From assembly GCA_030619765.1 (NCBI GenBank), contig JAUXAU010000003.1, positions 11,654 to 75,653 of the forward strand: 64,000 bases of DNA. The letters run 5' to 3'. A program made the translations under genes and the position numbers. Positions 7,552 through 27,090 of this stretch are shown one piece after another. Position 1 is the first letter of the stretch; every line of letters starts with the position of its first letter. The DNA is from Thermoplasmatota archaeon (GTDB lineage: Archaea; Thermoplasmatota; E2; DHVEG-1). The notes under the pieces were generated by a model, which was not told the origin of the DNA, searched no databases, and was given only the letters and a program-made list of their open reading frames with translations.

Positions 7552-7690
7552 GGGAGCATGGTGTAACCCGGCATCATTGTGGGCTCCAGTTAGGAATGAT
7601 TACACGAGGGTCATCTGATCTATGATGAATAACTGGAGCGATGACCTAAGAAGAGACCCGCCGATCTGGGTTCAAATCCCAGTGCTCCCA
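7552..7690 (+). tRNA. tRNA-Trp(CCA) with a 66-nt intron at position 37/38
   Basis: Acceptor stem GGGAGCA/TGCTCCC, anticodon stem GTGGG/CCCGC, loop CTCCAG-[intron 7590-7655]-A, T-loop GTTCAAATC. Confidence 0.95.
7590..7655 (+). ncRNA. Intron-encoded box C/D guide RNA (predicted Cm34 and Cm39)
   Basis: Box C ATGATTA, guide ..GGGTC.. then D' CTGA, C' ATGATGA, guide AACTGGAGC then D ATGA. The N+5 rule lands on C39 and C34. Confidence 0.88.
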
Positions 7691-8983
7691 TATCTCACTA
7701 CTCCTGTTGTTTCCAGTCGAAACAGGGGTTTTTAGTGGTTTTCTTGAATTTATCGAATTATCCTCTCTCGGAGTACGAAATTTAAGGATCCGATTAATCC
7801 AATTATACGGGGCCTGCAGGTAATACATTTTGGCGTATTGTATATAAGCCATAGTCGTTTTTGGATCGGTATGCCCTAACCAACTGCATACTTCAAACTC
7901 ATCGAATTTATCATTTTCGACCTTGGTTTCAATCAGTCGGGCTATTGCACACCAATGCCTCATATCATATGGTCGGAAGGTCGGCCATACTTGTTTTCCT
8001 AATACACTCAATCGATGTCCTAATAGTCTTACTGTAACAGGCTTACCACTTGGCCATAAGAATAAGGTGTTACCACTGTATTGGTTTTCAACTTTTGGGC
8101 GCCAATGATCAATCCAATTTTTGAAACTCTTATGTCGCGGACAGGAAAGGATTTCTTTTCTCGGCAGAATAGTATGTTTTTTATTTCGTTTTTTGACTTC
8201 AGTGATTTCTATGCCACCAGTTCCATCACCATTAATTTGGATGTCATCGATAGTTAATGCACAGAGTTCTGATGGTGGTCTCATACCAATTGTAAACCCT
8301 ATTGTAAAAATGTATTGATACAATTTGGTTTCATAAAGATCGTTGGAATACTTGTAATGCATTATCTGATATACTGTATTAGGAAATGGTAATAACCGTA
8401 AATGAGGTTCAGGTTTTCTTGGTGGTTTAAAATTCCATAGAGGGATCTCATATGCCCTTAACAACATTTTTAAGGCGTCCCATTCGTGGCGTATAGCAGC
8501 GTAACCTGCATTCTCATATTTTATCCTATACCAAGTATGTTGTCGGAAGTTTTCAAGATTGGGATTTTTTAGATCAACAGAGATCTTGTGCATTTCCATA
8601 AAGCGTAAATAACACAAGTGTTTCTCTACCGTTTTTATCCCCAAATGTTGCACTTCTATAGCATTTCGGTAAAGATCTGTAAATGTTGATTGACCAGGTA
8701 TTAATCGTTGTGGGAAATCTGGATATTTAACTCCAAAAATATCTTTTGTATTACATCTTTTTTTCGCCATATCCTGAACCAATCCAGGTTCGAATTGATG
8801 TTTGACAGGATACCAGCTTTTTTCCATTTTTATATTGCATTTTTTATGTTCACATCCTATCCAATCATCGTATGTTTGATGATCAGATAAGGGTAAATTA
8901 AATCCTTTATCATTTATAAAATTTGTGATATCGTTAAAATCTATTAAATGCAAGTTATCATTATTATAATAAATAAATATCAC
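7646..8983 (-). CDS. int: Tyrosine recombinase/integrase whose 3' end crosses attL
   Basis: GMRPPSEL (R), VKK (K), YDMRH (R), LGHTDPKTTMAY (H, Y). Start uncertain: GTG 8983, ATT 8974 or TTG 8953. Confidence 0.92.
   Translation of the reverse strand: MIFIYYNNDNLHLIDFNDITNFINDKGFNLPLSDHQTYDDWIGCEHKKCNIKMEKSWYPVKHQFEPGLVQDMAKKRCNTKDIFGVKYPDFPQRLIPGQSTFTDLYRNAIEVQHLGIKTVEKHLCYLRFMEMHKISVDLKNPNLENFRQHTWYRIKYENAGYAAIRHEWDALKMLLRAYEIPLWNFKPPRKPEPHLRLLPFPNTVYQIMHYKYSNDLYETKLYQYIFTIGFTIGMRPPSELCALTIDDIQINGDGTGGIEITEVKKRNKKHTILPRKEILSCPRHKSFKNWIDHWRPKVENQYSGNTLFLWPSGKPVTVRLLGHRLSVLGKQVWPTFRPYDMRHWCAIARLIETKVENDKFDEFEVCSWLGHTDPKTTMAYIQYAKMYYLQAPYNWINRILKFRTPREDNSINSRKPLKTPVSTGNNRSSEIWEHWDLNPDRRVSS
7679..7691 (+). 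repeat. attL core
   Basis: CCAGTGCTCCCAT, the tRNA-Trp 3' end. Confidence 0.88.
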
Positions 8984-9270
8984 TCCTTTTTTTTCCTGGA
9001 AATAGAAAATAAAAAGTAAAGACCGAAAGAGAGGGGTGATAACTTGAATGCACCCTTTTGGTTGTTTTGGTAGGAGCAAAAACACCCTCTCCAAAGGTCG
9101 GCTTTACAGAATATCCAAATGCAAATGGATTGATAAACGTTTGGTTAGTCAGTCTTTTCCACACCAAAAACAACCAAAGGTAGGAAACACAATCAACAAT
9201 ATAAAACCCCTACCAATATTTTTTTAGTGGCGCACAGATAGTGCATAGAGTTGAAAGCATAAATCAAAAA

Positions 9271-9315
9271 TCATACTGACACTCATACTGACATTTTATG
9301 ATATTTCATATGACA
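9271..9315 (+). promoter_or_regulatory. Direct repeats TCATACTGACA x2 plus degenerate TCATATGACA (operator or arm-site candidates)
   Basis: Copies at 9271-9281, 9283-9293 and 9306-9315, between the divergent int and HTH genes. Confidence 0.45.
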
Positions 9316-9332
9316 TATCAGAGTAAAAATAT

Positions 9333-9926
9333 ATGACATACGATACCCATACCAGAGAGAGGACAATGAAGAAAGATCTAAAGAAAACCAATAAAGAATT
9401 GAAAAAAGATGTAGCCACAGAATTAAGAGATATGGGATATATCAACGATGAGATAAGACGAGCTCTGGGTTGCACAGAGAGAACATTATATAGGTGGCAA
9501 TCCGAAGACATAGACGATGAGCAACAAAAAGAAATAGAACAACAAACAGAAGAGTTAGAACAGAAACAACAAAAAGAAATCGATGAAATTAAAGAACGCC
9601 TTGACAACTTAAGCAGATATTACGAAAATCTATGGAAAGAAAAACACACACCGGAAAAACCGACCGAACAAGATAAAGCCGAGGCAATAATCCTTCAAAT
9701 GATGTTAGAAAGAAGCTTCAAAAACGATAAACTCTTAGAACTGCAGAGACAGAGAACGCGAGAGATATGGGAGACCCACCAATGGATAGAGCAAAACCCG
9801 ATATGGAATGAAACAGAATACACAGAAGGCAATGCGAGATGGCAACGATTGATGGACAAATGGGATGGAAAGATGGAGAGAAAATATAGATATCCCCAAC
9901 AACTACAAGGATATCAAAACCCTTAA
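9333..9926 (+). CDS. HTH plus acidic coiled-coil protein directly upstream of the dual-spacer array
   Basis: GYINDEIRRALGCTERTLYRW (HTH) followed by E/Q-rich heptads. Alternative start at 9366. Confidence 0.8.
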   Translation: MTYDTHTRERTMKKDLKKTNKELKKDVATELRDMGYINDEIRRALGCTERTLYRWQSEDIDDEQQKEIEQQTEELEQKQQKEIDEIKERLDNLSRYYENLWKEKHTPEKPTEQDKAEAIILQMMLERSFKNDKLLELQRQRTREIWETHQWIEQNPIWNETEYTEGNARWQRLMDKWDGKMERKYRYPQQLQGYQNP

Positions 9927-9947
9927 ATAAAAACACAACCATATAAG

Positions 9948-10306
9948 TGCAACCATAAAATACCTGGTAGCCACGTAAAAAATGAAAACCATAAGATAAT
10001 TGCGAGCCAAGGCATCAATGAAAACCATCAATAAATTGCGTAGCCAGAGGTGGGATGAAGCCCATAAAAATCTTGCGTAGCCAATACAGCAATGAAATCC
10101 AGGGTTCACTTGCGTAGCCAAAATATGAATGAAAACCGCGGGTATGTTGCGTAGCCAAGAAAGAAATGAATTCCAAATTGATGTTGCGTAGCCAATAATA
10201 AAGTGGAATCCAACCCATTACTGCGTAGCCAACTGGATGATGAAAACCATATCAATATTGCGTAAGTATGTAAACAATGAAGCACATACAAATGTGCGCG
10301 TAAGCA
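9948..10306 (+). repeat. TIGR-like dual-repeat, dual-spacer array (8 regular units plus degenerate flanking units)
   Basis: Edge repeat TGCG(T)AGCCA, 9-nt spacer A, loop repeat TGAAAACCA-like, 9-nt spacer B. Period 37 nt (36 once); all spacers differ. Confidence 0.85.
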
Positions 10307-10317
10307 ACGCAAAAAGT

Positions 10318-10349
10318 GGTATCGGCCGTTTTTGGGAATAGCCGATACC
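10318..10349 (+). terminator. Hairpin closing the array
   Basis: GGTATCGGC / GCCGATACC, a 9-bp perfect inverted repeat. Confidence 0.5.
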
Positions 10350-10500
10350 TATACCACTAAACAACAGAGAGAAAGCGCTACAAAGCCTTAAAATAAGTAT
10401 TTTTTGTAGAAATAAAAATAAAAACTACCTTTTTAAAAAATGTCTCCTTAAAATCGATTTAAACCAAGGTAGAAATTCAACATTCATACGAACAACACCA

Positions 10501-10833
10501 TCAAGATTGTTTAAAGGGAAGTTCTACAGCTGAAGGTTCAAGCGAGTAACCATAAGACAGAAGCATAGAAATCATTAAAACACAAATCAATGGCAATATC
10601 AACCCTGGTAGGCTAAAAGCAAAAGTTGTGTCAGTAACCACCGCAACAAGAAATGCAACTGTAGGAGCAACCAATCCCCCGCAGATAGGCAATGTAAATA
10701 TAATTCCTATGCTACCGTTACGATCGATTGTAAAAGCGCCCACCACCATTGCAAAAATACCGCCCACAATGATATACAATAAAACGTTACCCACAAGGAG
10801 CTCCTGTATTATTTGTTGCATTGTAGTAATCAT
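10501..10833 (-). CDS. Three-TM membrane protein
   Basis: Three hydrophobic stretches. Confidence 0.7.
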   Translation of the reverse strand: MITTMQQIIQELLVGNVLLYIIVGGIFAMVVGAFTIDRNGSIGIIFTLPICGGLVAPTVAFLVAVVTDTTFAFSLPGLILPLICVLMISMLLSYGYSLEPSAVELPFKQS

Positions 10834-10857
10834 ACTTCAAGCCTCATAGGTGAGTTT

Positions 10858-10903
10858 GGGTTGATTGCAACGAAAGATCTCACTAGAAGATTGCAATCAA
10901 CCC
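10858..10903. repeat. 13-bp perfect inverted repeat with a 20-nt loop
   Basis: GGGTTGATTGCAA / TTGCAATCAACCC. Confidence 0.8.
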
Positions 10904-10947
10904 GCCAAGTTTAGAAGAGTTCGAGGCGCCAAAAGGTTCAGAAGCCT

Positions 10948-11148
10948 TTAAGGAGACTTAGCCCGCTTTTTCTCGCGTTCGTCCAAGATTATCGATGCAC
11001 AATCTTCACTAATCAGATTTCGTTTTCCGAATTCATAAATCTTTTCATCCGAATACGTACTGGCCCACCGATACTCCAAGATAGAACACGGATGGAGCTC
11101 CGCTTCTTCCTTTTTGGCTTCTGGGATATATACTTCTTCTTCTGGCAT
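10948..11148 (-). CDS. Small hypothetical protein
   Basis: MPEEEVYIPEAKK.. within track ORF 10948..11220. Confidence 0.45.
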   Translation of the reverse strand: MPEEEVYIPEAKKEEAELHPCSILEYRWASTYSDEKIYEFGKRNLISEDCASIILDEREKKRAKSP

Positions 11149-11253
11149 TGTTAACAAACCTTCTATATCTGTAGATGTAGACCTGGCTAATAAAAGTAAC
11201 TGGGCACCCCCTACCCCCAAAAGTTATACATAGAATTTGGATCTGGGCCCCGA

Positions 11254-11505
11254 ATGCCAAACCCTAAAAAAACTATGTCCATCAATCGAACCGTATGGGT
11301 TAAGGCAAGAAAAAAAAGACTACGACACAGTAAAAAACACGGTGTAAAAATCGGTAGAAATTGCTTATTGTGTGTTTATGGGAATACACCCATTAACACA
11401 GACGCAAAAGTTCGATGTTCATTCCATAACCCCGATGTTGTGTTCGATAACAAAAAAGGATATTGGATATGCTACACATATCAATACGATAAAAGGTTAT
11501 CCTGA
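11254..11505 (+). CDS. Small basic Cys/His-containing protein (possible Zn binder)
   Basis: K/R-rich N-terminus; CLLC..C..H..C. Confidence 0.5.
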   Translation: MPNPKKTMSINRTVWVKARKKRLRHSKKHGVKIGRNCLLCVYGNTPINTDAKVRCSFHNPDVVFDNKKGYWICYTYQYDKRLS

Positions 11506-11676
11506 TGACAACATTATATTTATCAAAAATCCACAGAGAAACAAAAGTTACCCCCTGTGGTAACTGTAGATTTATTGGATGTGCAAACACCTATACCAAA
11601 CGATTGTCATAACAACCATTAGAATAAAAACTAATTCCGTTTTTACAATCTGTTATAAAGTCATCAGTAAAATTTC

Positions 11677-11808
11677 TTATCTTTCAGAACTATATATCTT
11701 GTTAAGAAGGTATGATACTTCTCCACTGATTGACCTGTAGTTTTCTTTTGCTTTTTCCCGCAGTAGTTTCTCATCTTCTTTTGATAATGATATCGTTATT
11801 TTTGCCAT
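11677..11808 (-). CDS. Ribbon-helix-helix (Arc/CopG-like) repressor, 43 aa, absent from the track
   Basis: MAKITISLSKEDEKLLREKAKENYRSISGEVSYLLNKIYSSER: alternating beta-strand, helix, RSIS..V turn. Confidence 0.85.
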   Translation of the reverse strand: MAKITISLSKEDEKLLREKAKENYRSISGEVSYLLNKIYSSER

Positions 11809-12060
11809 AAAGCCAATTACTATAGATAGAACTTTCAATCGTTTTTCTAATTTATACGAATATATACTACAAAGGAATTAAATAGATGTATAAGGATGTC
11901 TATTTTAATAGAATGAAAGAAAAAATTAGAAAACCGATGAAAAAGGAAGAAATGAGTTTTGCAATGCGATGTTTCTATTATGGTTACAAAGCATATTATA
12001 TGAATTTAGACTAACCCCATAAAAATATTTTTGGGATTAATTGATTTTATTTTTTGATAA

Positions 12061-12261
12061 CTAAACAATACCTATAAATACAAACAAACCGCCAATACCC
12101 CCAATTTTTGTGCAAGGGAACGATAATTCGATGGGCAACGTTATTTTTTTCCCGTTCCTACGTATCAGAAACGGTGTGCCTACGTAAAAACTATCGTTGT
12201 CAATCCAATGCCTTTCATAATACCTAAAATTGTTATTTAGTCCTATTCTTACAACTATCAT
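12061..12261 (-). CDS. Small hypothetical protein
   Basis: ORF collinear with the minus-strand gene run. Confidence 0.4.
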   Translation of the reverse strand: MIVVRIGLNNNFRYYERHWIDNDSFYVGTPFLIRRNGKKITLPIELSFPCTKIGGIGGLFVFIGIV

Positions 12262-12444
12262 TATATAGTATTAACAGTTACTTTAACTCCAATAGTTATA
12301 CTGAAAAAGTATACCTGGAACTAAGCATAGACTGTTCACGGAGTTATGGGCAAACCCTCCTGGTATTTAACCAGGGCGATTACTTAGCATATGCTTATCC
12401 CAGGTGTTTATTACTGAATACTGAAATTGTAAGTCATTTGCCTC

Positions 12445-13269
12445 TTACAATTTCTTATTCTTATCTTTAGGCCCAACAGGTTTGTCAGGTTCAGATTTGT
12501 TAGACGATGTAGTCCCTATATCGTCTATTATACTGTTAATACCGTCAATTAGGCTATGTAACATATCTATGTCTTCAGGTAATCCAATATAATTTTTGGC
12601 CCAACCAAAACCAACACCTTCGCTACCGTCAGTTAAGGTTACCTCAATCATCGGTCCGCTATCAATGGAGTAAAAGATACCGTAGTCTCCTTCTTTTTTC
12701 GTTGTTTTAATCCATTTGTCATCATTATGTGCCTCAGAAAATAGTTTTAATTCTTTAGGTCTGCTACTTCTGTTGCCTTTTGCCATTTTACAGTTCACCT
12801 CCTGTATGCTATGTTCTCGCATTTTAGTCGATGAAACCAAAAACTCAGACCGAAAAATCATTTTTTCCTCTTTTCTTTCTGTCGCAACAGCGACAGTTTC
12901 ATCAGTTTTAGAGAAATCACTTTTTCTCGTGTGAGTTTCCTTCGTTTGTGTTTCATCAGAAATTTGAGAACCGTGAAACTTAGAATTTTTAATCTTAGAA
13001 CCTGAAAGCCTGCCATCGGCCTTTTTTTCAAAAATGATATTGACTTGACGAATTGTAATCTTAAAATCCAGGTTTTTCCACTGTGCAAATTCTTGGAGGT
13101 ATTGCACAATTTCAATTTCTTTCCAACCTAATTTATCTCTCATAAAACAGACTAAAAATAATCGTTCAGGATCTCGGGCATTTGGATCTTCAATTATTCT
13201 GTTCAGTTCGTTACGCCATTTATTGCTTTTAATGAAATATCGGGAAGTGTTATCATCTGTAAAAGTCAT
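12445..13269 (-). CDS. Putative replication protein: PriX/PriL-CTD-like helical N-domain plus beta-rich C-domain
   Basis: RLFLVCFMRDKLGW..EIVQYL...WKNLDFKITIRQV resembles the primase large-subunit C-terminal pattern (by eye). Confidence 0.5.
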   Translation of the reverse strand: MTFTDDNTSRYFIKSNKWRNELNRIIEDPNARDPERLFLVCFMRDKLGWKEIEIVQYLQEFAQWKNLDFKITIRQVNIIFEKKADGRLSGSKIKNSKFHGSQISDETQTKETHTRKSDFSKTDETVAVATERKEEKMIFRSEFLVSSTKMREHSIQEVNCKMAKGNRSSRPKELKLFSEAHNDDKWIKTTKKEGDYGIFYSIDSGPMIEVTLTDGSEGVGFGWAKNYIGLPEDIDMLHSLIDGINSIIDDIGTTSSNKSEPDKPVGPKDKNKKL

Positions 13270-13565
13270 TGTTTATTCTCCTTACAAAAACTACAATATC
13301 CAAAATATCCATCAATGTATAAAATACCCTTTTTATTGACTACAGACTTACAGCTGGCAATCAAAAAATGTCGTTGTTGGTTGCAATTAATACAATAATG
13401 AATAATGTAGGGTTGTTGCCAGATAATCTTAATGTCATCGGGTTTACTATTTTTTTTGTTAATGTATGCAATTTTCCAACCTAAATCTCGTAAGGTTTTC
13501 TTTTCATTGCCAATGTCAATATAATTAGGAATAAACTGTTGTCTAGACAACGGATTTACCTCCAT
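13266..13565 (-). CDS. Zn-ribbon protein
   Basis: CINC..CSFC; overlaps the next gene by ATGA. Confidence 0.65.
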   Translation of the reverse strand: MEVNPLSRQQFIPNYIDIGNEKKTLRDLGWKIAYINKKNSKPDDIKIIWQQPYIIHYCINCNQQRHFLIASCKSVVNKKGILYIDGYFGYCSFCKENKQ

Positions 13566-13725
13566 AATTAAGATCTTCCAAAAAAGTAATTTTAATGGGT
13601 TTTGGTTTTGAAGATAAAAAAAAGAAAAAGAAAAGTTTAAAGTGTTTGGAATTGATATCTGAAATCAAGAAGGCGTAAAAATGGAATTTCTTGATCAAAT
13701 TCCCTTCTGTTGGTGTATGGGAGTT

Positions 13726-13738
13726 CCAGTGCTCCCAT
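13726..13738 (+). repeat. attR core
   Basis: Exact copy of CCAGTGCTCCCAT. Confidence 0.88.
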
Positions 13739-13768
13739 TCACTCATATAAAATTGGAAGAGGATTGAA

Positions 13769-13963
13769 ATGAATATGAAGGATGTTAATGAATGGACGAT
13801 ATTATCATTACTCGCTATAGTAGCAGGGATAATATTTTATGTATATTGGGGCATAACGTATGGTGTTTGGGCAGATATAGGCATCTATTCTATAACTATA
13901 GTTTTAGTTTTCTCTGGAGTGTGTGGAATATTATTGTCACTTCATCCAAAGAAGGAAGATTAA
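13769..13963 (+). CDS. Small two-TM membrane protein
   Basis: Hydrophobic ORF with GAGG RBS. Confidence 0.7.
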   Translation: MNMKDVNEWTILSLLAIVAGIIFYVYWGITYGVWADIGIYSITIVLVFSGVCGILLSLHPKKED

Positions 13964-14035
13964 AAACTTCTTTTTAGCATATTTTGGTTAAAGTCGGCAC
14001 AACATTTATATATGGTAGATAGTAATTGATGCCTG

Positions 14036-14239
14036 ATGGAACAGGATAATTTCTTCAAGAAACATTCTGGGGAATGGCTTTTGCTTTTTAATGACGAAAT
14101 TGTAGATCACAGTGTTAATTTAGAAGATTTATTAAAAGAGGCAGATGAAAAATATCCTGCCGAAAAGTTTCCAGATGATAATATAAAGATATCAAAAGTA
14201 TTACAAGGGACACCAAGAAATATCTTACGGGATAGATAA
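14036..14239 (+). CDS. DUF5678-like small protein
   Basis: HSGEWLLL...IVDHS..LEDLLKEA pattern; coupled to the downstream aspartyl protease. Confidence 0.65.
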   Translation: MEQDNFFKKHSGEWLLLFNDEIVDHSVNLEDLLKEADEKYPAEKFPDDNIKISKVLQGTPRNILRDR

Positions 14240-14638
14240 ATGTCTGAATTACAATTTATATTTGAATACAGGGATTTCCCCCTTATTCCTATAAAGTTTT
14301 GTACTACGAGAAGAGAAACTCCAACTATTGATGCACTGTTAGATTCAGGTGGAGATTTTATTGTTATCCCCCATGCCATAGCCAAATATTTGGAATTGAA
14401 CTTACAAAAAGCAGGCCATGTTGATACTGCAGGGGGAGAAACAACCCTGTATAAGTCATTTGTTAACATGGTGATAAATGATAAAGATAAGAAATTTACT
14501 TATGAGGATCTAGAAATCCATGTTTCTGATCGAAACGACATACCTGTTCTTCTTGGCAGAAAACCAATTTTTGAAGATAATGAAATCATATTTAAAAAGC
14601 ACGAAAATAAACTTATTTTAAATCCAATAGAAAAATAA
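14240..14638 (+). CDS. Retropepsin-like aspartyl protease
   Basis: ALLDSGGD and VLLGR motifs. Confidence 0.85.
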   Translation: MSELQFIFEYRDFPLIPIKFCTTRRETPTIDALLDSGGDFIVIPHAIAKYLELNLQKAGHVDTAGGETTLYKSFVNMVINDKDKKFTYEDLEIHVSDRNDIPVLLGRKPIFEDNEIIFKKHENKLILNPIEK

Positions 14639-14748
14639 TAAAAAATGTTGCAGTTTTTTTTGAAAAAATTGTTATTTGTATGCTTTTTATGGAGAAAATT
14701 AGGAGAAGGTTTAAATCATAGATTGTTTATTCAGTTATGAGGTAGAAT

Positions 14749-14934
14749 ATGGCATATACACATGAAGGTTGGACATTATATAAGAGAGATGTTACCTTAA
14801 AAGGTGGAAGGAATCAAACTATCTATTTCTTTAGCAAGAGAACACCAAAAAGCGGCTCACCATGTGACAAGCCCGATAATATGGTTGTTGGTGTTAACAA
14901 GAGAACGGGTCTTCCATACTTAAAAAAGAAATAA
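14749..14934 (+). CDS. Small basic protein
   Basis: GAGGT RBS; K/R-rich 61 aa with WTLY..V.LKGG..QTIYFF. Confidence 0.8.
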   Translation: MAYTHEGWTLYKRDVTLKGGRNQTIYFFSKRTPKSGSPCDKPDNMVVGVNKRTGLPYLKKK

Positions 14935-15229
14935 AATTAATCATCTCTTTTTCTTTTTTTAATTTCATATAGATGTATTGTTTTGTCAGAGTGAGGTAGA
15001 TAAAGGAAAATGAACGTTTTTCTCATTTGAAAGTGCTAGAAATAATGAACTGATAGAATTCTTACAATAGGGAACTGCGAAAGATCGTATTGATATATAT
15101 TGTACCTTACTTGCTTCTTTAATGCTTATTGTGTTACATATATGACGTTCGAAAAACATATCTTGTCATTGATTAACATATAACTTTATATATATGACAT
15201 ACATTAGATTATATAGGGAGGTATGAAGA

Positions 15230-15652
15230 ATGCAAAATAGGATGTTAAAAAAAGGCCTGGTCATCGGTGTTATCTGTGTTTTGATACTAGTGTCTTTACC
15301 TACTATTACTGCAGATGTAGAGAATTATAATAATTCTATTGTTTTGATTGCAGGTAAGAGCAATTCTACAAGTTGCCTGAGTTTATGGTGGAGAATCGGG
15401 TTATATATCCCTGTTATGAAAAGGCATTTTTTTGTAGCGGCAAACGGAGAAGAAGGAGAATCACTCAATGTCTTGATATTTAGTAGAAACAATGGAATTG
15501 CTACTTATTATGACTACGAAGACATTAGAATTGAGTTACAACGTGCCCGAGGTGTGTTTTATTGGGGAGAAAAATCCCTTCTGTTTAATCATAGTGAGCC
15601 GTCGCCAGTGTTTGTACTGTGTAGGGCCGAAAGAGCGTATGTAACCACTTAA
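15230..15652 (+). CDS. Secreted hypothetical protein
   Basis: Signal peptide MLKKGLVIGVICVLILV. Confidence 0.75.
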   Translation: MQNRMLKKGLVIGVICVLILVSLPTITADVENYNNSIVLIAGKSNSTSCLSLWWRIGLYIPVMKRHFFVAANGEEGESLNVLIFSRNNGIATYYDYEDIRIELQRARGVFYWGEKSLLFNHSEPSPVFVLCRAERAYVTT

Positions 15653-15671
15653 AAAATAATGAGATAAAAAA

Positions 15672-16589
15672 ATGAAAATTAACAATCTTCTTAATAGAGG
15701 AATTACCCTTATTGTAATTGTTTTATTTATCGGAGTATCTTGCATACCAACTGGTATCACTTCAAAGGTTGCTCCATTAGATGATATTCAAAAGGAACCT
15801 CATGGCTTCTTTTTCGGTTTAAAAGGGCATATAAAGTTTGATTTCAATCTGGATGATTTTCTCGAACCGATAGAACCAGGCGGTGGAGGATGGTTTCTAT
15901 ATAATGTGAGCTATAAGGTTTCTGGTATATTCGCCGATATTATAGCAAGATGGTTTCATGGAAGGGTGTTTATGACAATTGAATTATCCATTAAGGATGT
16001 CCCTGAATGGGCTTCAATTAGCGTTTTCCCCGATACGGTGCACTTCGATATTAGTTCAGATTGGGAGACACCTATTGAAAGTCCTGCAATCTTGATTATT
16101 TTAAATGAAAGTGCACCTGCTTTTAATATATCCTACTTTAAAATAGTGGGGACAACTAATTGTACAAAGGGACCTTTTGGTATTCTCACTTGGATACATG
16201 GTTCAAAGGTTGAAAAGGAGTTCCCCATTGTCCCAGGTTATCTGCCATTAATAAATGTAACACCAGAGACAAATAACATACATACCCCACCAGGTCAAAT
16301 AACGGAACTAAACATCTCAATAGAAAATCTTGGTAATGGTTTAACTTTAGTTAAATCTGAAATTATTGACAGTCCATCCCCGAATTGGTGGGTTTATATC
16401 CAACCTGAAACAGTTTTGGATGTAGGTGAAGAAAAAGAGGCGTCTCTATTCATCATGCCTCCTGAAAATTACACGGGTAATGATTCGATAAATCTTACTT
16501 TCACTCCATGTTACTACTATGACCCAAATAATCCTGAATTACAAGGAATGCCTATAACTGAAGTTATCACAGTTAGATCTCAGCCTTAA
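15672..16589 (+). CDS. Secreted protein with Ig-like domains
   Basis: Signal peptide; ISIENLGNG beta-sandwich pattern. Confidence 0.75.
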   Translation: MKINNLLNRGITLIVIVLFIGVSCIPTGITSKVAPLDDIQKEPHGFFFGLKGHIKFDFNLDDFLEPIEPGGGGWFLYNVSYKVSGIFADIIARWFHGRVFMTIELSIKDVPEWASISVFPDTVHFDISSDWETPIESPAILIILNESAPAFNISYFKIVGTTNCTKGPFGILTWIHGSKVEKEFPIVPGYLPLINVTPETNNIHTPPGQITELNISIENLGNGLTLVKSEIIDSPSPNWWVYIQPETVLDVGEEKEASLFIMPPENYTGNDSINLTFTPCYYYDPNNPELQGMPITEVITVRSQP

Positions 16590-16680
16590 GGAAGATTTAC
16601 GATTCCATTGAATCTCTATTTGATAAAGAGGTTGAATTTATATATTAAATACTGCATATAACATAGTTAGTGGTAAAAAT

Positions 16681-17781
16681 ATGAAGAAAGCTGTTACAAT
16701 TTTCGTTCTATTACTATTTCTTATACCTATAAATATCATGAGTGCTGAAAAGTTAGATAATGTTGTAGAACAATATGAACTACCCCCTTATTTCAGTTGG
16801 CAGGACATCAATGGTACTGATTATACCACACCTATTAAAGATCAATCACCAGCTCCCACATGCGAGACATACGCAATATGTGCCTCACTTGAAACAATAA
16901 TGCAATACCAAATGGGAGAGGTATATGAACCAGATCTTTCAGAAACACACCTTTATTTCTATGCAGGTGGGACATATGAAGCAGGATATGTAAACCTAAT
17001 AGACGCAGCAAATTACCTCATAGAATATGGCGTCCCTGACGAAGGATGCTATCCTGATCCACATAGAGCATTTGATTACCCATTTGAAAGTCTACCTGGA
17101 TGGGAAAATAGAACAGTAAAAATAACTGAATGGGGATGGGTCGACCACGACGTAGAGGCAATAAAAGAAGCATTAATCGAATATGGCCCACTCATCATAT
17201 GTTTCTATGTTTACAATGATTTTTACTATTACTTAGGAGGCGTTTATAGACACCGATGGGGAGAACGCGTTGGAGGACACGTAGTAACCATCGTTGGATA
17301 TGATGATTCCCATAAATGCTGGATTGTAAAAAACAGCTGGGGAACAAAATGGGGTGGAAAAGGCTGGTTTAGATTGGCATACGATGCAGACATATTTGCA
17401 GAATGGTATGGGGAAGGTACAGGGGTAATGTACCTCGATGGCATCTATGGAAACTTGAAACCTGATGTTCCGAAAATAAAGGTTGAAAAACCGACATTCT
17501 ACCATACCTATATATTTAATATAGGTTTTACTACGATTTATAGAAAACTACAGATTCAAGTAGCAGCGGCAAGAGTATTTGGAAATCTAAATGTAAAAGT
17601 AAATGCTGAAAACACCAATATAGTTGAATTCTACGTCGATGATGTATTGCATCATATCGATAATGAAGCACCATTTACATGGAATATGCAAGCTACACGT
17701 GGAATCCACACTTTAGAAATAAGAGCAAAGAATGACTACAATACATCATTAGGCATAGTTGATTTCTATGTGTTTCCCTAA
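16681..17781 (+). CDS. Secreted C1A papain-family cysteine peptidase with C-terminal Ig-like domain
   Basis: IKDQ...C (atypical QSPAPTCETYA), GGHVVTIVGY, KNSWG. Confidence 0.88.
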   Translation: MKKAVTIFVLLLFLIPINIMSAEKLDNVVEQYELPPYFSWQDINGTDYTTPIKDQSPAPTCETYAICASLETIMQYQMGEVYEPDLSETHLYFYAGGTYEAGYVNLIDAANYLIEYGVPDEGCYPDPHRAFDYPFESLPGWENRTVKITEWGWVDHDVEAIKEALIEYGPLIICFYVYNDFYYYLGGVYRHRWGERVGGHVVTIVGYDDSHKCWIVKNSWGTKWGGKGWFRLAYDADIFAEWYGEGTGVMYLDGIYGNLKPDVPKIKVEKPTFYHTYIFNIGFTTIYRKLQIQVAAARVFGNLNVKVNAENTNIVEFYVDDVLHHIDNEAPFTWNMQATRGIHTLEIRAKNDYNTSLGIVDFYVFP

Positions 17782-17990
17782 ACATCTTTTTTTAAAGGAA
17801 AAGAAATCTAACTAAATATGAGATTGAATATTTGGTATACTATTAGTCGAATTGGAAGGCTATGATTAGATATTGAAGCAGTACTAATCAAAATGGTTAT
17901 TGGAGTGTTTCTTCAATCTTAAAAACATTGTATCATAGCTATCACTTCAATACGATTATTTTATATATATTAAAATTAATATTAAATTTA

Positions 17991-20039
17991 ATGAGTTCAA
18001 TGACATCTAGAGAAAACTTTCAATCATTTATCCCTGCGAAAAACATTATACCTGAATTAACACTGAAAGCAGTGTTAGTTGGCGCATTGCTCGCAATTGT
18101 TTTAGGATCAGCAAATGCCTATTTTGGATTATATGCTGGTATGACAGTATCCGCTGCCATTCCTGGTGCCGTCCTGGCATTTGCCTTACTTAGATCATTC
18201 AAAGCAACAATTCTTGAAGTAAACATTGGGATGATGGGAGCAGCAGCTGGTACTGCGCTTGCAGCAGGCGTTATCTTTACGATTCCTGCAATGTTACTTC
18301 TTGGAGCATGGACAGAAATTCATTATTTTGAAACAACAATTGTTGCAGCACTAGGAGGGATTCTTGGTGTTTTATGGATGGTATCACTCAGGCGTGCCCT
18401 GATTATCAAAACAGATCTACCATTTCCAGAAGGAGTCGCAGTTGCTGCAGTATTAACATCAACAGTAGGTGATGGTGATACAAAGAAAAAAGGACATTCT
18501 GGAGTGAGTGGTATCTGGTTATTTATAGGTGCCGTGCTTGGAGCATTGTTAAAATTTGGACAAGTTGGACTTCAAGCAATTGAGGGAAAACTGCATGGTG
18601 TTATCAATATTGGAAGATTCAATATTGGTGGAGGAGAAAATGATGGATTGTTTTATGGCGGCGTTGCAACCTCCCCAGCACTTCTTGGAGTAGGTTGGAT
18701 TATTGGACCAAGAATAGCATCTTTTGTTTTTGTCGGAGGACTACTTGGCTGGGTGGTAATTGCACCACTGATTGCTCTTGCAATTGGTATTCCAACACCA
18801 ATAACTTCAGGAGAAATCACAGATGCCATGGCTATGGCAGGTGGAAACCTCGAAGCCGGTAAGTATATCTGGGGTTTTTATAAAATCTGGGAAGATTACA
18901 TCCGATATATTGGCGTAGGTGCCATGGTTGTTGGTGGGTTATGGACGGTTTTCAAACTTAGACATAATCTTGCTGATGGAATTAGAGAGGCAGTCGTTGG
19001 CATAAAAAGTGGCCAAGTGCAGGCAAAAAAACGAACAGATCAAGATTTAAATTTCAAATATGTGTTTTTAATGATTGGAGTACTAACAATTCCTGTGTTT
19101 TTACTTTACGTATGGATTTCAAATGAATGGTTAATTTCAGGAGTCATGGCTGTGTTTGCTATTCTTTTTGCATTTATTGCAAGTGCGATTGCTGGATACA
19201 TGGCAGGATTGGTTGGCTCATCAAATAACCCAACCTCAGGAGTTACTGTTTCAGTGTTACTTTTAACCTGTTTGATTCTCCTTGGATTTGGTGTATCTGG
19301 AAGTGTGGGTGCGTATGGTATTGCACTTCTTATTGCAGCGGTTATAGCTTGTTGTGCAGCAATTTCAGGAGATGTGTTACAGTCCATGACCGCTGGACAA
19401 ATGATAGGGGCAACCCCATCCAAACAACAGATTGCTGAATTAGTTGGAATTCTTGCTGCAGCACCCGTTCTTGCACTTGTGGTATCCGCACTTCATCAAG
19501 CATATACAATCGGAAGTACGAATTTACCTGCTCCTCAAGCATTTCTTATGAGTGGTGTTGTACGTGGTGTGCTTGGTGGTGAAATGGTCTGGCCGTTTGT
19601 GCTTGCTGGAATGGTGCTTGCATTTGTTCTGATCCTCATCGATGTACCCGTACTTCCCGTGGCCATTGGTATATATCTACCGTTTACCCTTGCGGCTCCT
19701 ATTTTTTGTGGAGGAGTAATTCGCTATATCACTAATAAAAAGATTAAGAAGCATTATGGATCTGATGAAGGAGAACAAGCGAGTGAATGGGAACTAGCTA
19801 TTAAACAAACAGAAGTGAAACCAAAAGAACGCATTATTCGAACAGGTCTTTTGTTCACAGCAGGTCTTATTGCTGGAGAAGCATTAACTGGAGTGATTGT
19901 TGCATTTATTATTATCGCAGGAATAAACATTGTAATGTTTGAATTCTCCCCTGCTCTTCCAGGGCTCTTGTTATGGTTGTTTGTTGCCCTTCTTGTATTC
20001 TATATTCCATTAAGAGAAATATATGCTAAAGGTAAATAA
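17991..20039 (+). CDS. OPT family oligopeptide transporter
   Basis: ELTLKAV, ANAYFGLYAGMTVSAAIP, FPEG, SNNPTSG, APQA. Confidence 0.93.
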   Translation: MSSMTSRENFQSFIPAKNIIPELTLKAVLVGALLAIVLGSANAYFGLYAGMTVSAAIPGAVLAFALLRSFKATILEVNIGMMGAAAGTALAAGVIFTIPAMLLLGAWTEIHYFETTIVAALGGILGVLWMVSLRRALIIKTDLPFPEGVAVAAVLTSTVGDGDTKKKGHSGVSGIWLFIGAVLGALLKFGQVGLQAIEGKLHGVINIGRFNIGGGENDGLFYGGVATSPALLGVGWIIGPRIASFVFVGGLLGWVVIAPLIALAIGIPTPITSGEITDAMAMAGGNLEAGKYIWGFYKIWEDYIRYIGVGAMVVGGLWTVFKLRHNLADGIREAVVGIKSGQVQAKKRTDQDLNFKYVFLMIGVLTIPVFLLYVWISNEWLISGVMAVFAILFAFIASAIAGYMAGLVGSSNNPTSGVTVSVLLLTCLILLGFGVSGSVGAYGIALLIAAVIACCAAISGDVLQSMTAGQMIGATPSKQQIAELVGILAAAPVLALVVSALHQAYTIGSTNLPAPQAFLMSGVVRGVLGGEMVWPFVLAGMVLAFVLILIDVPVLPVAIGIYLPFTLAAPIFCGGVIRYITNKKIKKHYGSDEGEQASEWELAIKQTEVKPKERIIRTGLLFTAGLIAGEALTGVIVAFIIIAGINIVMFEFSPALPGLLLWLFVALLVFYIPLREIYAKGK

Positions 20040-20197
20040 AAAAACACGATTTGGTTTATGTATTATTTTACAGGTTCATTTTTCTGTTGTATTGATTATT
20101 TAAAACCAATGATATTTGATGCAATACATAGTAATAATTTTTTATAGATAATCTTTAAATATAATTTATTGATTAATTACTTAAGGGAGAATAATTT

Positions 20198-22387
20198 ATG
20201 AAAAATAAAAAGATAAAGAATAATTTTGTATTAGTTATGATTTTAGTTTTAGTTCTTTCAACAGCATCTCCATTTGCTGTGGGTGAAGTTTTACAGCAAA
20301 AAAATGATGACAAAAATAGTTCAATTACTCTCAACAGAGGTGTAACTTTTGTTTCCAAATCATCAGGACTTCAAGTTCCAGCAAAAGAAGGAGGAAAGAC
20401 CGAATTGGAACTTGCTGATATCAACAATGATGGACATTTAGATATTATCTGTGTTGGTGATCATGGTTCTCCTTATATTAATAGTGATCAACATGGAATC
20501 ATGGTATGGCTAGGTGATGGAGAGGGCACATGGTCTGTTGCTCAAGTTGGGAATTTCGGTTATGGTGGTATTGAAGCAGGAGACCTTAACTTAGACGGCT
20601 ATCTTGATGTAGTCTGGGGGATACATCATGATTATAGTAGCACTCCTGGTTTTGGTGATACTTTAATTGGTGCCGCTTTGGGGGATGGTACTGGCTCGAA
20701 TTGGATTCCATGGGCAACAGGGCTTGGTACTGGTGGTGAAGATTACGGTATGTTTTCAACTGATCTTGCTGATTTTGATTGTAATGGTCTACTTGATGTT
20801 ATATCTCTATCATTTGGTTGTTGCAACGGTTATCACCAGTATGAAAACCATGGAGATGGAACTTGGAGTCATACTTGGGCTTTATCTGGAGGAAATGCTA
20901 GAAATAATCTTGAAACATGTGATTTCAATGCTGATGGATATCCTGATTTTGCTGGACTTCGTGAGAATACCTATGTTTTTCTTGGAGATGGTTCTTTTGG
21001 ATTTACTATGAATCAAAATGGTCTTCCAGCTGGATACTATTATGGTATTGATTGCGGAGATATGAATAATGACGGATGTGATGATTTAGTTATTGGTTTT
21101 GGATCGTCTGGAGTACGTTGCTACAAGTTTGATAAACAAAATGATGAATGGGTTTCAGCATCCAGTGGTCTACCAACCGCTGGGACCTACGAGGTACAAT
21201 TTGGAGATATTGATGGGGATGGTTTTCTTGATATTCTTGCTTATGATGCTCCCACAGGTTATGCATATCTAGGGGATGGAAATGGGAACTGGATGCTCGA
21301 TGGAACATTTACTATGTCTAGTCCTGGTTATTATTCTGCACTTACTGTTGATGGTGATTTTGACCATGATGGTCGTGAAGATGTTTTAATACAAGCTGAG
21401 CAGGGTAGTTGGCCCTCATATCAAAATATATTAAAGGCTTATTCTCCATGGCTTGAACCAACGGAACCTACTGCTCAAGTGACGGGACCTCATGGCGGTG
21501 AAACGTTTAGAAGTGGGTCTATTCGTAATATTCGTTGGCTTTCTGCTGTTCCACCATCACAAGGAGATGCTACTGTTGAAATTCAAGTATCTCTAGATGG
21601 CGAATCAGGTCCATGGAATACAATTGCATCTGATATTCCAAATAATGGCTGCTTTCAATGGTTAGTTGATGCGGGTGGATCTGAGCATTGTAGGATAAAG
21701 ATTATTGTTTCTACATCATCTGCGAGTATATCTGCTATATCAGCATCTGATTTTACCATTATAGGTTTTAATGTGGATGCACATGGTCCTTACCAGGGAC
21801 TTATAGGTGAGTCTGTGCAATTTACAGGTTCAGCAGAAAATGGAACACCACCGTATGATTATCATTGGGATTTTGGAGATAGTGATACATCTGTTTTGCA
21901 GAACCCAACACATATTTATGATGACGCTGGAAATTTTACAGTTACTTTAACTGTTACTGATGATGATGGTATAACTGTTCGTGATTCAACCTGGGCTTTT
22001 ATTCGAGGAGATAACAACCCTCCAAGTACACCTATAATTGATGGTCCAACTAGTGGAAACGCAGGAGTTACTTATTATTACAACTTCACAATAAACGACA
22101 TAGACGGTGACCCTATGTATCTGTGGGTTGACTGGGATGACGGAACTCAGGGACCATATATTGGACCATATGAATCTGGAATAGTAAACCTTGGACATGC
22201 ATGGTCCGAGGATGGAACTTATACAATCAGAGCCAAAGCAAAAGACGTCCATGGTAATGAGAGTGAATGGGGAACACTGGAAGTTACCATGCCAAGAAAT
22301 AGAGTGTTATCTAACTCATTATTCCTACGGTTTTTACAACAATTCCCAAATGTTTTTCCAATACTCAGATACATATTAGGGCTCTAG
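20198..22387 (+). CDS. Secreted FG-GAP (VCBS) repeat protein with PKD domains
   Basis: Repeated D-x-N/D-x-DG-x-x-D motifs; WDFGD and DWDDG PKD motifs. Confidence 0.88.
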   Translation: MKNKKIKNNFVLVMILVLVLSTASPFAVGEVLQQKNDDKNSSITLNRGVTFVSKSSGLQVPAKEGGKTELELADINNDGHLDIICVGDHGSPYINSDQHGIMVWLGDGEGTWSVAQVGNFGYGGIEAGDLNLDGYLDVVWGIHHDYSSTPGFGDTLIGAALGDGTGSNWIPWATGLGTGGEDYGMFSTDLADFDCNGLLDVISLSFGCCNGYHQYENHGDGTWSHTWALSGGNARNNLETCDFNADGYPDFAGLRENTYVFLGDGSFGFTMNQNGLPAGYYYGIDCGDMNNDGCDDLVIGFGSSGVRCYKFDKQNDEWVSASSGLPTAGTYEVQFGDIDGDGFLDILAYDAPTGYAYLGDGNGNWMLDGTFTMSSPGYYSALTVDGDFDHDGREDVLIQAEQGSWPSYQNILKAYSPWLEPTEPTAQVTGPHGGETFRSGSIRNIRWLSAVPPSQGDATVEIQVSLDGESGPWNTIASDIPNNGCFQWLVDAGGSEHCRIKIIVSTSSASISAISASDFTIIGFNVDAHGPYQGLIGESVQFTGSAENGTPPYDYHWDFGDSDTSVLQNPTHIYDDAGNFTVTLTVTDDDGITVRDSTWAFIRGDNNPPSTPIIDGPTSGNAGVTYYYNFTINDIDGDPMYLWVDWDDGTQGPYIGPYESGIVNLGHAWSEDGTYTIRAKAKDVHGNESEWGTLEVTMPRNRVLSNSLFLRFLQQFPNVFPILRYILGL

Positions 22388-23851: not shown

Positions 23852-25741
23852 CTATCCTCCAACTTTAAGGCTTGGGTCTCCGAATAGCTGCCATTGTTGT
23901 ACCATTTTTGGATCCATTTCATCGTGGCTGCATAGAAACGTATGTAGGTAATCCTTTATTGCTCCGCTATGTAAATCTCCGAGAATGTCTACTTTTTCTT
24001 GGTTATATAGTTGGAAGAATCTTAGCTCAAGCCATCCATCTAGTACTTCAAGATAGTCGTTTACATTATTTTGATCTGCATCGCTCATGGCATGTGTCCC
24101 TAGTCCTGTGTTGGCTATAGTTGCTATTGCTCCTCCTCCTTTTTTACTGGTTAGTTTCCATGCCCAACAGCTAGCCGGTGCAAGTTTTATTTTCCCTCTT
24201 TTAAGGCTATTACCTATTGACAAGTCAAATTTTCCGTTGAAACATCCTCCTACTACTGTTATCGGGAGTTTGTTTTTATTTCTAAGAAAATTCATGTATG
24301 TTGTGTGGTAGAAGGTGATTAATCCTAATCTGCTAAGTGATGGCCCCCATCCGGTGGCATCAGGTGGGTAATGTATTCCCCAACTAGTTGCTGAGCCGTG
24401 TCCGCAGAAATAAGCAAATCCCGCTCCTTTGTTTATGGCTTTGTTTATATTTCTAACTAATAATTTATTTTCCTTAGTGGCATATAGTTTTACAGGAGTA
24501 AAACCTGACATTATTTCTGATGCTTCTTCCATTATTAGTACGCCTTCACTTATCTGACCTGGGTCTTTCCAGTGGTCACCTGACACAAGTATCATTTTTT
24601 TGAACCAATCATCATCGGCCTTTTTTTTCTCGTAGTCAATTATTTTATTTACTACGATTCTAACTTCACGTTTATTTCTACATGGTAGCCGACCGAGGTA
24701 GACGTCTGGGTATAGGTCCATTTCATCTATTTCTGTTGATCCCTCCCATTCCGCAAAAATATTGTTGTCGTTGGTATCCCAGCTAGAGAAATTCCCTTCA
24801 CTGTCATAAATATCTGCAAAGTATAGATCGCAGATGAACTTTGGCTCTGGTACTTCTTGTTTATCTTCTGAGACTAGAACATGGCTGTATCTAGTTGGTA
24901 GGTTCCATTTTGTTGTTTGACCTTTAATACCGCCAACTAATAGAACATATTCGATTCCCCAGTTTTCGATTGCTTCTTTGATATAGTATTTTATCTTTTC
25001 TTGTGTATCTCTACCGTTGGTGTCTTGGATTTCATTTAATGTTACAAGTTTTGTTTTGATACCTATTTTTTCTTTATGGTTTACAAATGGTTGTAGAGGT
25101 TTTTTAAAATCTGAAACAGTGAGAATTAATAGATCATATTCATCTTTGTTTTCTAATAATGGGTCGTCAGGTTGTTCATAGATTATGGTAACCATAGCTT
25201 GTTCAATAAAATCTATCTCATAGTCTGCTGGTCTATATGTTATGGGGTTAACTCTAACGGTTAGGAATGTTTTGTGTATACCGTTGGATAAACCTCCACC
25301 CGTGTTATAAGATATAAAACTAGATGGAAACCTTGTATCCTTATCATAAATATTTGGGTCTTCGCCTGTAAGAGTGGAACATGAGCCAACCGAGATTTTT
25401 TTCGTAAGAGTTATTGCTTCAGGTTCTGAGTATTCATAGATAATATCTAGTATTTTTGTTCCAAAAGGAAACTCATATGTTGTGGTTTTTACAGGTATCA
25501 CAGGCCATCCATCATGTATATCGTAAAAATCTGCTTCATCAACGTACACACAGGTATATTCTCCAAATTCGCCGAAGGTAGGATATGAAAAAGTGTATTT
25601 TTGTGTTATCGTTTCCCCTTGTATATTTAAATATTGGTCTACGTTGTCTTCTGTATCTCTATCTTTATCTTCATATATAATAAAGACTACAGCGCATGCA
25701 ATTAATACAAAAGCCATAATTATTGCAAGGATATTTTTCAT
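23852..25741 (-). CDS. C25 (gingipain-type) cysteine peptidase
   Basis: DLYFAD, PDVYLGRLP, FCGHG, GGCFNG, WQLFGDPSL. Confidence 0.92.
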   Translation of the reverse strand: MKNILAIIMAFVLIACAVVFIIYEDKDRDTEDNVDQYLNIQGETITQKYTFSYPTFGEFGEYTCVYVDEADFYDIHDGWPVIPVKTTTYEFPFGTKILDIIYEYSEPEAITLTKKISVGSCSTLTGEDPNIYDKDTRFPSSFISYNTGGGLSNGIHKTFLTVRVNPITYRPADYEIDFIEQAMVTIIYEQPDDPLLENKDEYDLLILTVSDFKKPLQPFVNHKEKIGIKTKLVTLNEIQDTNGRDTQEKIKYYIKEAIENWGIEYVLLVGGIKGQTTKWNLPTRYSHVLVSEDKQEVPEPKFICDLYFADIYDSEGNFSSWDTNDNNIFAEWEGSTEIDEMDLYPDVYLGRLPCRNKREVRIVVNKIIDYEKKKADDDWFKKMILVSGDHWKDPGQISEGVLIMEEASEIMSGFTPVKLYATKENKLLVRNINKAINKGAGFAYFCGHGSATSWGIHYPPDATGWGPSLSRLGLITFYHTTYMNFLRNKNKLPITVVGGCFNGKFDLSIGNSLKRGKIKLAPASCWAWKLTSKKGGGAIATIANTGLGTHAMSDADQNNVNDYLEVLDGWLELRFFQLYNQEKVDILGDLHSGAIKDYLHTFLCSHDEMDPKMVQQWQLFGDPSLKVGG

Positions 25742-25899
25742 ATGTTTTCACATTTTATCTTTAAATATATTCAATGGTATTTATATACGCTTTGTTATTT
25801 AACATATAAAAACTTTTATAAATATTTTCTATTGGAAGCAATACCTAGCAAGGTTTCTAATGAGACTATGATTAGGTGCAGGAGTAGTAACTAGCAGGT

Positions 25900-27090
25900 T
25901 TAAGACCTTCTAATGTGCCCTTTAAGCTTAATAAAATACAATATTAATAGTGCAGGACCAAAAACCCATGCAGAATAGAGAAATGTACGGGCAAAACCAA
26001 TTGTAGCAACCATAGAGCCTGTGATCATTCCACCGCCGTTTAAACCAACGTTTGCAACACCTGTGAAAATACCATATTGAGTAGCACCGATTCTTGGATT
26101 TGTTACATCCATAAACAGTGCACAAGATACTGTTGAATGAGCACCCATCAGAAATCCAATTATACCATAAATTATTGATAATTTCCACCAGTTATTTGTG
26201 AAAATAAGGGATGCAGTAAAAATTGCATTTAATCCAAGGAAAATATATAATGTTAATTTCCTTCCAATTTTATCTGTGGTAATCCCACCGGCTACCGAAC
26301 CAATGGCTAAAAATATTGGAAAAATCATAGATATAAGCCCAATTTGAACATCACTAATTCCAAGACTGTCCCTCATATAAATAGGCATAATAAATGACAA
26401 CATTCCCTCACTCATGAAAACGATTGGCGAAAAAATTGCTATTAACTGAGTTGTCTTCTTCTTAAACTCTTTTATAACTAGAGATACTATTTTTTGTCTT
26501 GACTTGAACTTAATCGTTTCCTTTACAAGAAAAGGAAAGATAAGAATTAGCAAAATTATAAGACCGTTTGTGAGATAGGCATAACCATAACCAAAATTAG
26601 AGCCTATTAAGGGGAGTAAAGCTGCCCCAATAGCCCAGGCGGAGTATTGACCTGCAAACATTGAACCATTTATTTTTCCCCGGTCTTTATCTGTTGAAAC
26701 ATCAATTGCCCAAGCATCTGTTGAAACATCTATGAAACCGATACCAATATGGCCTAGAAATATCAAAAGAGTAAATGGTATCAAAGAAACACCAGGGTCA
26801 ACCATGGAGACTAAAAACATGGAAGAAACGGTTAGTAGCCCTCCAAATATGATAAAAGTTTTTCTTCCAAACCTAATAAATCGGTCAACTATAGGACCCC
26901 AAATAAATTTTAGCATCCAGGGTATATTGACAATACCAACAATAAGAGTGGTGAGTGGAATAGGAACTGCTTTTTCTCGTAGATAAAGTGATGTAACTAC
27001 CGTTGTTATTGCAATCATTAATCCTTCTGAGAAGTAGAGATTCCCAAATAAGGAGTATTTCAGAAAACTGTGTTTAGTGATATCAATCAT
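25900..27090 (-). CDS. MFS transporter (AmpG-like)
   Basis: About 12 TM; LYFSEG, KFIWGPIVD, DVSTDAWA. Confidence 0.88.
   Translation of the reverse strand: MIDITKHSFLKYSLFGNLYFSEGLMIAITTVVTSLYLREKAVPIPLTTLIVGIVNIPWMLKFIWGPIVDRFIRFGRKTFIIFGGLLTVSSMFLVSMVDPGVSLIPFTLLIFLGHIGIGFIDVSTDAWAIDVSTDKDRGKINGSMFAGQYSAWAIGAALLPLIGSNFGYGYAYLTNGLIILLILIFPFLVKETIKFKSRQKIVSLVIKEFKKKTTQLIAIFSPIVFMSEGMLSFIMPIYMRDSLGISDVQIGLISMIFPIFLAIGSVAGGITTDKIGRKLTLYIFLGLNAIFTASLIFTNNWWKLSIIYGIIGFLMGAHSTVSCALFMDVTNPRIGATQYGIFTGVANVGLNGGGMITGSMVATIGFARTFLYSAWVFGPALLILYFIKLKGHIRRS

Follow-up and report, generated by a model that had tools for sequence, protein, structure and literature searches.

The window, which is the whole stretch of 64,000 nucleotides (64 kb) of archaeal DNA analysed here, carries a candidate integrative element of about 6 kb (7679-13738), bounded by putative att repeats. 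Inside it, a gene encoding a protein with an N-terminal HTH is followed on the same strand by a dual-repeat TIGR array. A related locus was read in the metagenomic contig L001 (BARV01000551.1). The following features are relevant to the interpretation.

7552..7690, + strand: intron-containing tRNA on the attL side (Rfam tRNA, 39 bits, E 1.4e-5; anticodon CCA by eye)
7646..9094, − strand: tyrosine integrase gene (Pfam Phage_integrase, E 2.6e-9), its 3′ end overlapping the 3′ exon of the tRNA-Trp
9271..9340, + strand: candidate operator cluster around the TATA-like box of the HTH gene
9275-9281 and 9287-9293, + strand: two copies of ACTGACA
9310-9321, + strand: near-palindrome ATGACATATCAG, a perfect 12-bp palindrome in L001
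9323-9334, + strand: TATA-like box AAAAATATAT of the HTH gene, flanked by four TGACA-containing sites
9332-9340, + strand: TGACA-containing site TATGACATA
9333..9926, + strand: gene of the HTH / acidic coiled-coil / Trp-rich protein (ORF of 197 aa)
9366, + strand: ATG, the likely start of the HTH gene, giving 186 aa
9916..9929, + strand: putative BRE/TATA-like promoter of the array, AAAACCCTTAAATA, overlapping the stop codon of the HTH gene
9948..10311, + strand: dual-repeat TIGR array of eight well-formed units (the first at 9965) and degenerate end units
10315..10405, + strand: hairpin after the array (core 10318-10349) with a conserved tail and a T6 run (10400-10405)
10501-10833, − strand: gene of a membrane protein of 110 aa with a homologue in L001
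13726..13738, + strand: candidate attR, a 13-nt copy of the tRNA 3′ end, CCAGTGCTCCCAT

The tRNA at 7552-7690 was missed by ARAGORN and at the Rfam gathering threshold. Its anticodon CCA, read by eye, would so make it a tRNA-Trp, and it would be the integration site of the element. The intron of this tRNA matches box C/D sRNA (sR3-like, E 0.01), in which it resembles self-guiding tRNA-Trp introns known from archaea. The 13-nt repeat of the candidate attR is the sole exact word of at least 11 nt shared by the tRNA region and positions 7800-22000. The integrase and HTH genes point away from each other. A 53-aa protein encoded further along the element (11677-11838, − strand) has the look of a ribbon-helix-helix (CopG-like) protein (PHROG 10182, E 2.5e-4), which would give the element another small regulator. 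The membrane-protein gene, together with positions 10337-10432, shows 67-72% DNA identity to L001.

The HTH gene probably starts at the ATG at 9366, because in the alignment its homologues have their first residue at position 12-16 of the ORF, residues 1-15 have a pLDDT below 50 in the AlphaFold2 model, and in L001 a stop codon comes after the equivalent of the first ATG of the ORF. A GAGAGG stretch precedes the ATG at 9366. The model, based on a seven-sequence alignment (mean pLDDT 75, pTM 0.27), contains a three-helix HTH at residues 20-59 (helices 20-33, 38-45 and 49-59), followed by long helices at 62-105, 112-154 and 160-185. Residues 57-95 are acidic and rich in E, Q, K and D, and five tryptophans lie within residues 145-176. 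The N-terminal HTH, acidic coiled coil and Trp-rich C-terminal region described in the original prediction are thus borne out by the model and the sequence. Out of the five C-terminal tryptophans, W169 alone is common to the four closest homologues, and the only family-wide invariant tryptophans are W55 and W101. The gene also contains a 45-nt tandem duplication (9498-9587; copies 73% identical), which gives two similar 15-residue E/Q-rich blocks in the acidic coiled-coil segment.

Comparison of the gene with its L001 homologue gave a pN of 0.39 and a pS of 0.73, the synonymous sites being saturated; these values fit purifying selection, and the gene is a real, conserved one. Besides the protein itself, four relatives came out of a word-indexed search in 5.8 billion proteins, the best of them with 62% identity (E 3e-58, from metagenomes), and HMMER, run exhaustively against 1.84 billion representatives, returned only seven matches. 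The family is real but very small. One of the relatives, P0005, has two such HTHs and a zinc-ribbon tail that is transposase-like by eye. The host genome contains one copy of the HTH gene. The search for related loci with the family alignment returned nothing in viral contigs or genome contigs and one truncated fold-back contig, L001, in metagenome contigs. In a profile search across 400 more genomes of the phylum, four weak matches came up, confined to the HTH.

The affinities of the protein lie with HTH domains of mobile elements, the matches to family models all being weak. Pfam HTH_23 (PF13384) matched at E 9e-4 with 19.4 bits, not reaching the cut-off of 24.6, and HTH_Tnp_1 (PF01527) at E 0.044 with 14.4 bits, not reaching the cut-off of 24.1. 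The NCBIfam IS3 OrfA-like model NF033516 matched residues 22-120 at E 2.3e-4, with 20.5 bits against a cut-off of 160. Terminase_5 and a PHROG transcriptional regulator were further weak matches, and the ESM Atlas neighbours are HTH_23/HTH_Tnp_1 clusters. The top Foldseek match in the PDB was SIRV1 ORF55 (2X48; probability 0.99, rmsd 0.7 Å, 32 columns, 44% identity), to which phmmer gave E 0.62, and the next were the HTHs of serine recombinase, Tn3 resolvase, IstA and RpnA-S, with an rmsd of about 1 Å. The exhaustive VIA-align comparison with 48,161 chains matched residues 16-61 to the resolvase-type HTHs of 2r0q and 5cy1 (Z 5.7-5.8), and otherwise returned generic coiled coils with Z below 7. 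The protein accordingly combines a resolvase/transposase-type three-helix HTH with a coiled coil after it.

The 70 nt upstream of the HTH gene are about 90% identical to those of L001, against 73% for the coding sequence. ACTGACA occurs three times in the 64-kb window, twice at the promoter of the HTH gene and once inside a gene. It is quite probable that the HTH protein is a dimeric DNA-binding regulator of the 6-kb tRNA-Trp element and is autoregulated; binding, operator and promoter are predicted here from the sequence. The protein would dimerise through its coiled coil, and the dimer would bind the four TGACA-containing sites flanking its own TATA box and so repress its own promoter. It may also repress the integrase gene on the opposite strand, acting as a switch between maintenance and excision. 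Self-repression, perhaps extending to an integrase promoter, is the ordinary job of OrfA-like and KfrA-like proteins of mobile elements.

An unlikely alternative, though the best placed of those considered, is that the protein is a recombination directionality factor or integrase cofactor, which would bind near att or the integrase promoter and steer excision and integration. The integrase gene adjoins on the opposite strand inside the att-bounded element, and the HTH is of a type associated with resolvases and transposases. However, ACTGACA is missing at the att ends, and in L001 as assembled it is the membrane-protein gene that immediately precedes the homologue; an integrase in L001 could only lie past the contig end, of which one weak match (E 0.002) to the integrase-start region of the window is a hint. 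Moreover, a protein of 186-197 aa with a long coiled coil differs from the small excisionases that are known.

The gene ends shortly before the array. In each array unit the edge repeat TGCG(T)AGCCA and the loop repeat TGAAAWCCA are both followed by a 9-nt spacer, and at least eight units recur with a period of 36-37 nt. The unit pattern has 18 matches in the genome and none for the reversed control, and an array this regular goes far past anything that chance would give. The first, degenerate edge repeat, TGCAACCA, lies at 9948 on the same strand as the HTH gene, and among the early units with 9-nt edges, unit 1 has TGGTAGCCA and unit 2 has TGCGAGCCA, the form found in the Tas-1 array described below. 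The repeats of TasR arrays start with UG (box D) and end with CCA (box C); their edge repeat has one more G-C pair, and their loop repeat is rich in A (Faure et al., PMC12045711). The window array conforms to this. Its repeats, 9-nt spacers, end repeats and terminal hairpin also agree with the definition of a dual-repeat TIGR array in the same work, in which two repeats of 8-12 nt alternate and the end repeats are truncated, and by this organisation it is a genuine TIGR array. No targets of its spacers were found in the element with up to 3 mismatches, and no targets of the units of the window array (C110) and of the array on contig C11 were found in the genome with up to 1 mismatch (in both cases 18-mers, spacers A and B on opposite strands, both orders). 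Searched for in 117 further genomes of the order, the repeat pattern yielded no array; in the viral and genome contig collections, its matches were isolated and chance-like.

Arrays with repeats of this type number five in the genome, on C110 (the window), C11, C52, C78 and C96, and there are two tas genes; the features outside the window are as follows.

C11, 9330-9720, − strand: array of the window type, no adjacent tas gene
C52, 28100-28560: array of the window type, no adjacent tas gene
C78, 980-1130: array of the window type, no adjacent tas gene
C96, 18480-18760: array of the window type (C96b), no adjacent tas gene
C96, 5086-5970, − strand: Tas-1, 294 aa, with the motif RGIGPV (locus L220, C96:4006-7119; gene at L220:1081-1965)
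C16, locus 24132-27326 (L221; gene at L221:1252-1971), + strand: Tas-2, 239 aa, with the motif PGVGPT

Both tas genes were found in a whole-genome search with PF02371. The Pfam Nop model (PF01798) detected only the housekeeping Nop5 on C127 in the whole genome, and phmmer with this Nop5 found nothing else among all ORFs of the genome. The two genes were called TasA-type because the PDB alignments of their products begin past the nuclease domains of TasR and TasH, and no nuclease motif was seen by eye in their N-terminal parts. Tas-1 has arrays on both sides, of at least 28 units downstream and at least 10 upstream, with a period of 36 nt, the edge repeat TGCGAGCCA and the loop repeat TGAAGCCCA; the downstream array may extend past the left end of locus L220. 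Except for the loop interior and a single additional T in the edge repeat, these repeats agree with those of the window. C96b, which lies about 18.5 kb along its contig, combines edge variants of 9 nt and 10 nt in one array. One of its spacers, TATAAAGAT, recurs in the Tas-1 array. Tas-2 directly follows a gene that is ParB-like by eye (L221:600-1250, + strand; no Pfam hit), and the array after Tas-2 has different repeats, starting with AG instead of TG. The tasParB arrangement seen there was reported by Faure et al. (PMC12045711). Since about 38 units flanking the TasA of C96 carry near-identical repeats, this protein is the likely partner of the window array in trans, and the window-array guides would most likely be loaded onto it.

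The spacing between the HTH gene and the array can be explained by the array promoter. The stop codon of the gene occupies 9924-9926 and is separated by 21 nt from the first edge repeat, on the same strand, much as originally described. The sequence AAA-N3-TTAAAT stands at an equal distance before the first unit in four arrays (C110, C11, C52 and C96b) and looks like an archaeal BRE/TATA, which would be the array's own promoter; in the window, its TTAAATA contains the stop codon of the HTH gene. Since the TATA box has a stop codon in two of the three reading frames, a promoter that adjoins a gene is expected, as a by-product, to close the reading frame shortly ahead of the array. The 21-nt gap would then reflect the AT-rich promoter of the array abutting the gene, not guide binding. 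The hairpin noted earlier as the first strong one after the array is indeed there (10318-10349), its region is conserved with the C11 array locus and L001, and together with the T6 run it is likely to form the end of the array transcript. No terminator-like site was found on the + strand between the HTH gene and the array, and read-through from gene to array is for this reason possible; the single transcript proposed at first is to that extent tenable, but it is not needed if the array has a promoter of its own.

The other arrays bear on whether gene and array belong together. C11 carries a true paralogue of the window array, the two having the leader, the hairpin and about 80 nt beyond in common and two spacer pairs recognisably shared with few substitutions. 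In the alignment, the similarity of C110 and C11 starts at the array promoter, and identity upstream of it is at background level. A remnant of the 3′ end of the HTH gene had been suggested by eye at C11 and was rejected on the same alignment. The C52, C96b and C78 arrays lack the HTH gene, C52 and C96b having the promoter and no same-strand upstream gene, and an all-against-all BLASTP found no protein common to any two of the five array neighbourhoods. L001, the only homologous locus read outside the host genome and a possible fold-back assembly, has a 60%-identical HTH homologue, the membrane-protein homologue and the post-array region, and contains no TIGR units either after the stop codon or between the promoter and the hairpin remnant. 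As the membrane-protein gene and the post-array region are conserved in L001, this part of the element backbone persists without the array. L001 also has an exact 84-nt terminal inverted duplication (934-1017 and 1960-2043), which splits the HTH homologue into opposed pieces and could reflect a genuine inversion or a fold-back artefact of assembly. Near the four HTH-only matches in the 400 genomes, no array with a period of 34-40 nt was present within 1.5 kb. On this evidence the HTH gene does not belong to the array module, which starts at a conserved, predicted promoter of its own.

A linkage of gene and array nevertheless keeps a small weight, because the C11 array also follows, at a distance of 190 nt and on the same strand, a gene encoding an HTH/acidic/coiled-coil protein. 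This 304-aa protein has a weak KfrA_N match (PF11740, E 0.0018) and is collinear with the HTH family over the first approximately 100 residues (hhalign probability 21%, E 0.001). An array-linked accessory, non-Nop partner, which would control transcription or processing of the array or couple it to the trans-encoded TasA through coiled coils, is nonetheless improbable, more so than a directionality factor. It would agree with the shared strand, the 21-nt gap, the lack of a terminator and the recurrence of an HTH/coiled-coil gene before the C11 sister array, and a coiled-coil adaptor is conceivable because Tas dimerises through a Nop5-like coiled coil (PMC12045711). Sub-significant phmmer matches of the HTH protein to the coiled-coil region of Nop5 (E 2.4-2.8) point the same way, but they fall within low-complexity E/K/Q sequence, are no better than chance and were set aside. 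The homology of the window and C11 arrays ends at the array promoter, three arrays lack such a gene, L001 has the gene and no array, and there is no TGACA site in the array leader, all of which argues against a partner. The partner reported in the TIGR literature is ParB-like (Faure et al., PMC12045711), and in the main TIGR papers, as covered by a term search, neither an HTH partner nor orphan arrays are mentioned. Somewhat less probable still is the more specific notion that HTH/coiled-coil proteins encoded before Tas-less satellite arrays might act as element-encoded adaptors or timers tying guide expression or loading to a TasA that another element supplies in trans; if true, they would be a non-Nop accessory component of TIGR systems, new with respect to the TIGR papers. 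The proposed role of the protein as a guide-binding partner of the array is thus not supported, given the array's own putative promoter, the arrays without the gene and the gene without an array.

Several comparisons bear on the relation to Tas. Among the phmmer matches of the HTH protein in all PDB sequences (E up to 10) there was no Tas chain, BLASTP against Tas-1 gave E above 1, and hhalign of the HTH family profile with the Tas profile gave a probability of 0.14%. The Foldseek search with the predicted structure returned HTH domains, and neither its PDB matches nor the top 50 rows of the VIA-wide comparison included a Tas or Nop chain, absence from a fold list being no proof in itself. The GIG/YAG-type Nop motifs were rightly described as missing: the 197-aa protein contains no GxG anywhere and lacks the HhH motif G-[IV]-G-P, present in Tas-1 as RGIGPV and in Tas-2 as PGVGPT. 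As positive controls, phmmer matched Tas-1 to 9MTY (TaTasR) at E 9.6e-24 and to TasH at E 2.3e-18, and Tas-2 to 9MTY at E 2.4e-21 and to TasH at E 1.6e-13. The reading as a truncated or highly diverged Tas (Nop-domain) protein, which only the position beside a TIGR array and the all-helical composition favour, is therefore effectively refuted by phmmer, Foldseek, BLASTP, VIA and hhalign, given the missing GIGP HhH and GxG motifs, the hhalign probability and the lack of any sequence or fold match to solved Tas, to which the genome's two true Tas score E 1e-21 to 1e-23. The third suggestion made originally, an unrelated regulator left after loss of tas, comes closest to the evidence in its first part; loss of tas is an unnecessary assumption, as the genome has two tas genes and near-identical repeats accompany one of these.

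On this evidence the HTH gene before this orphan TIGR array encodes no unrecognised effector and no novel guide-binding protein, and a false lead is removed. What emerges instead is a picture of TIGR array cassettes, probably with their own promoter, on several mobile elements of one archaeon, with TasA encoded elsewhere. The gene also adds a tiny, undescribed family of archaeal HTH regulators of mobile elements with a clear candidate operator.

Among known systems, Tas proteins (TasA/TasR/TasH; 9MTY, 21KL; PMC12045711) resemble the present case in that the window gene adjoins a dual-repeat TIGR array, a position that alone does not define membership of Tas, and in that a coiled coil is present; unlike them, the window protein lacks a Nop domain and the HhH motif, and it resembles them neither in sequence nor in profile. 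With IS3-family OrfA, HTH_Tnp_1 and HTH_23 proteins it shares an N-terminal three-helix HTH directly before a coiled coil or leucine zipper, weak collinear matches and an origin on a mobile element. Its scores, however, are far under the curated cut-offs and its Trp-rich third helix is without a counterpart; in contrast to IS3 OrfA, no transposase ORF lies downstream, and the neighbour is a tyrosine integrase. SIRV1 ORF55 of the Sulfolobus rudivirus has the closest HTH by structure and sequence, and both proteins come from archaeal mobile elements, but ORF55 has 55 residues and no coiled coil. KfrA-type plasmid regulators, which are autoregulatory, have the same overall design of an HTH and a long coiled coil; the window protein has no KfrA match, and the resemblance is one of architecture alone. 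The best reading of the HTH protein is that of a small HTH regulator of an archaeal mobile element, belonging to a tiny family that appears not to have been described before.
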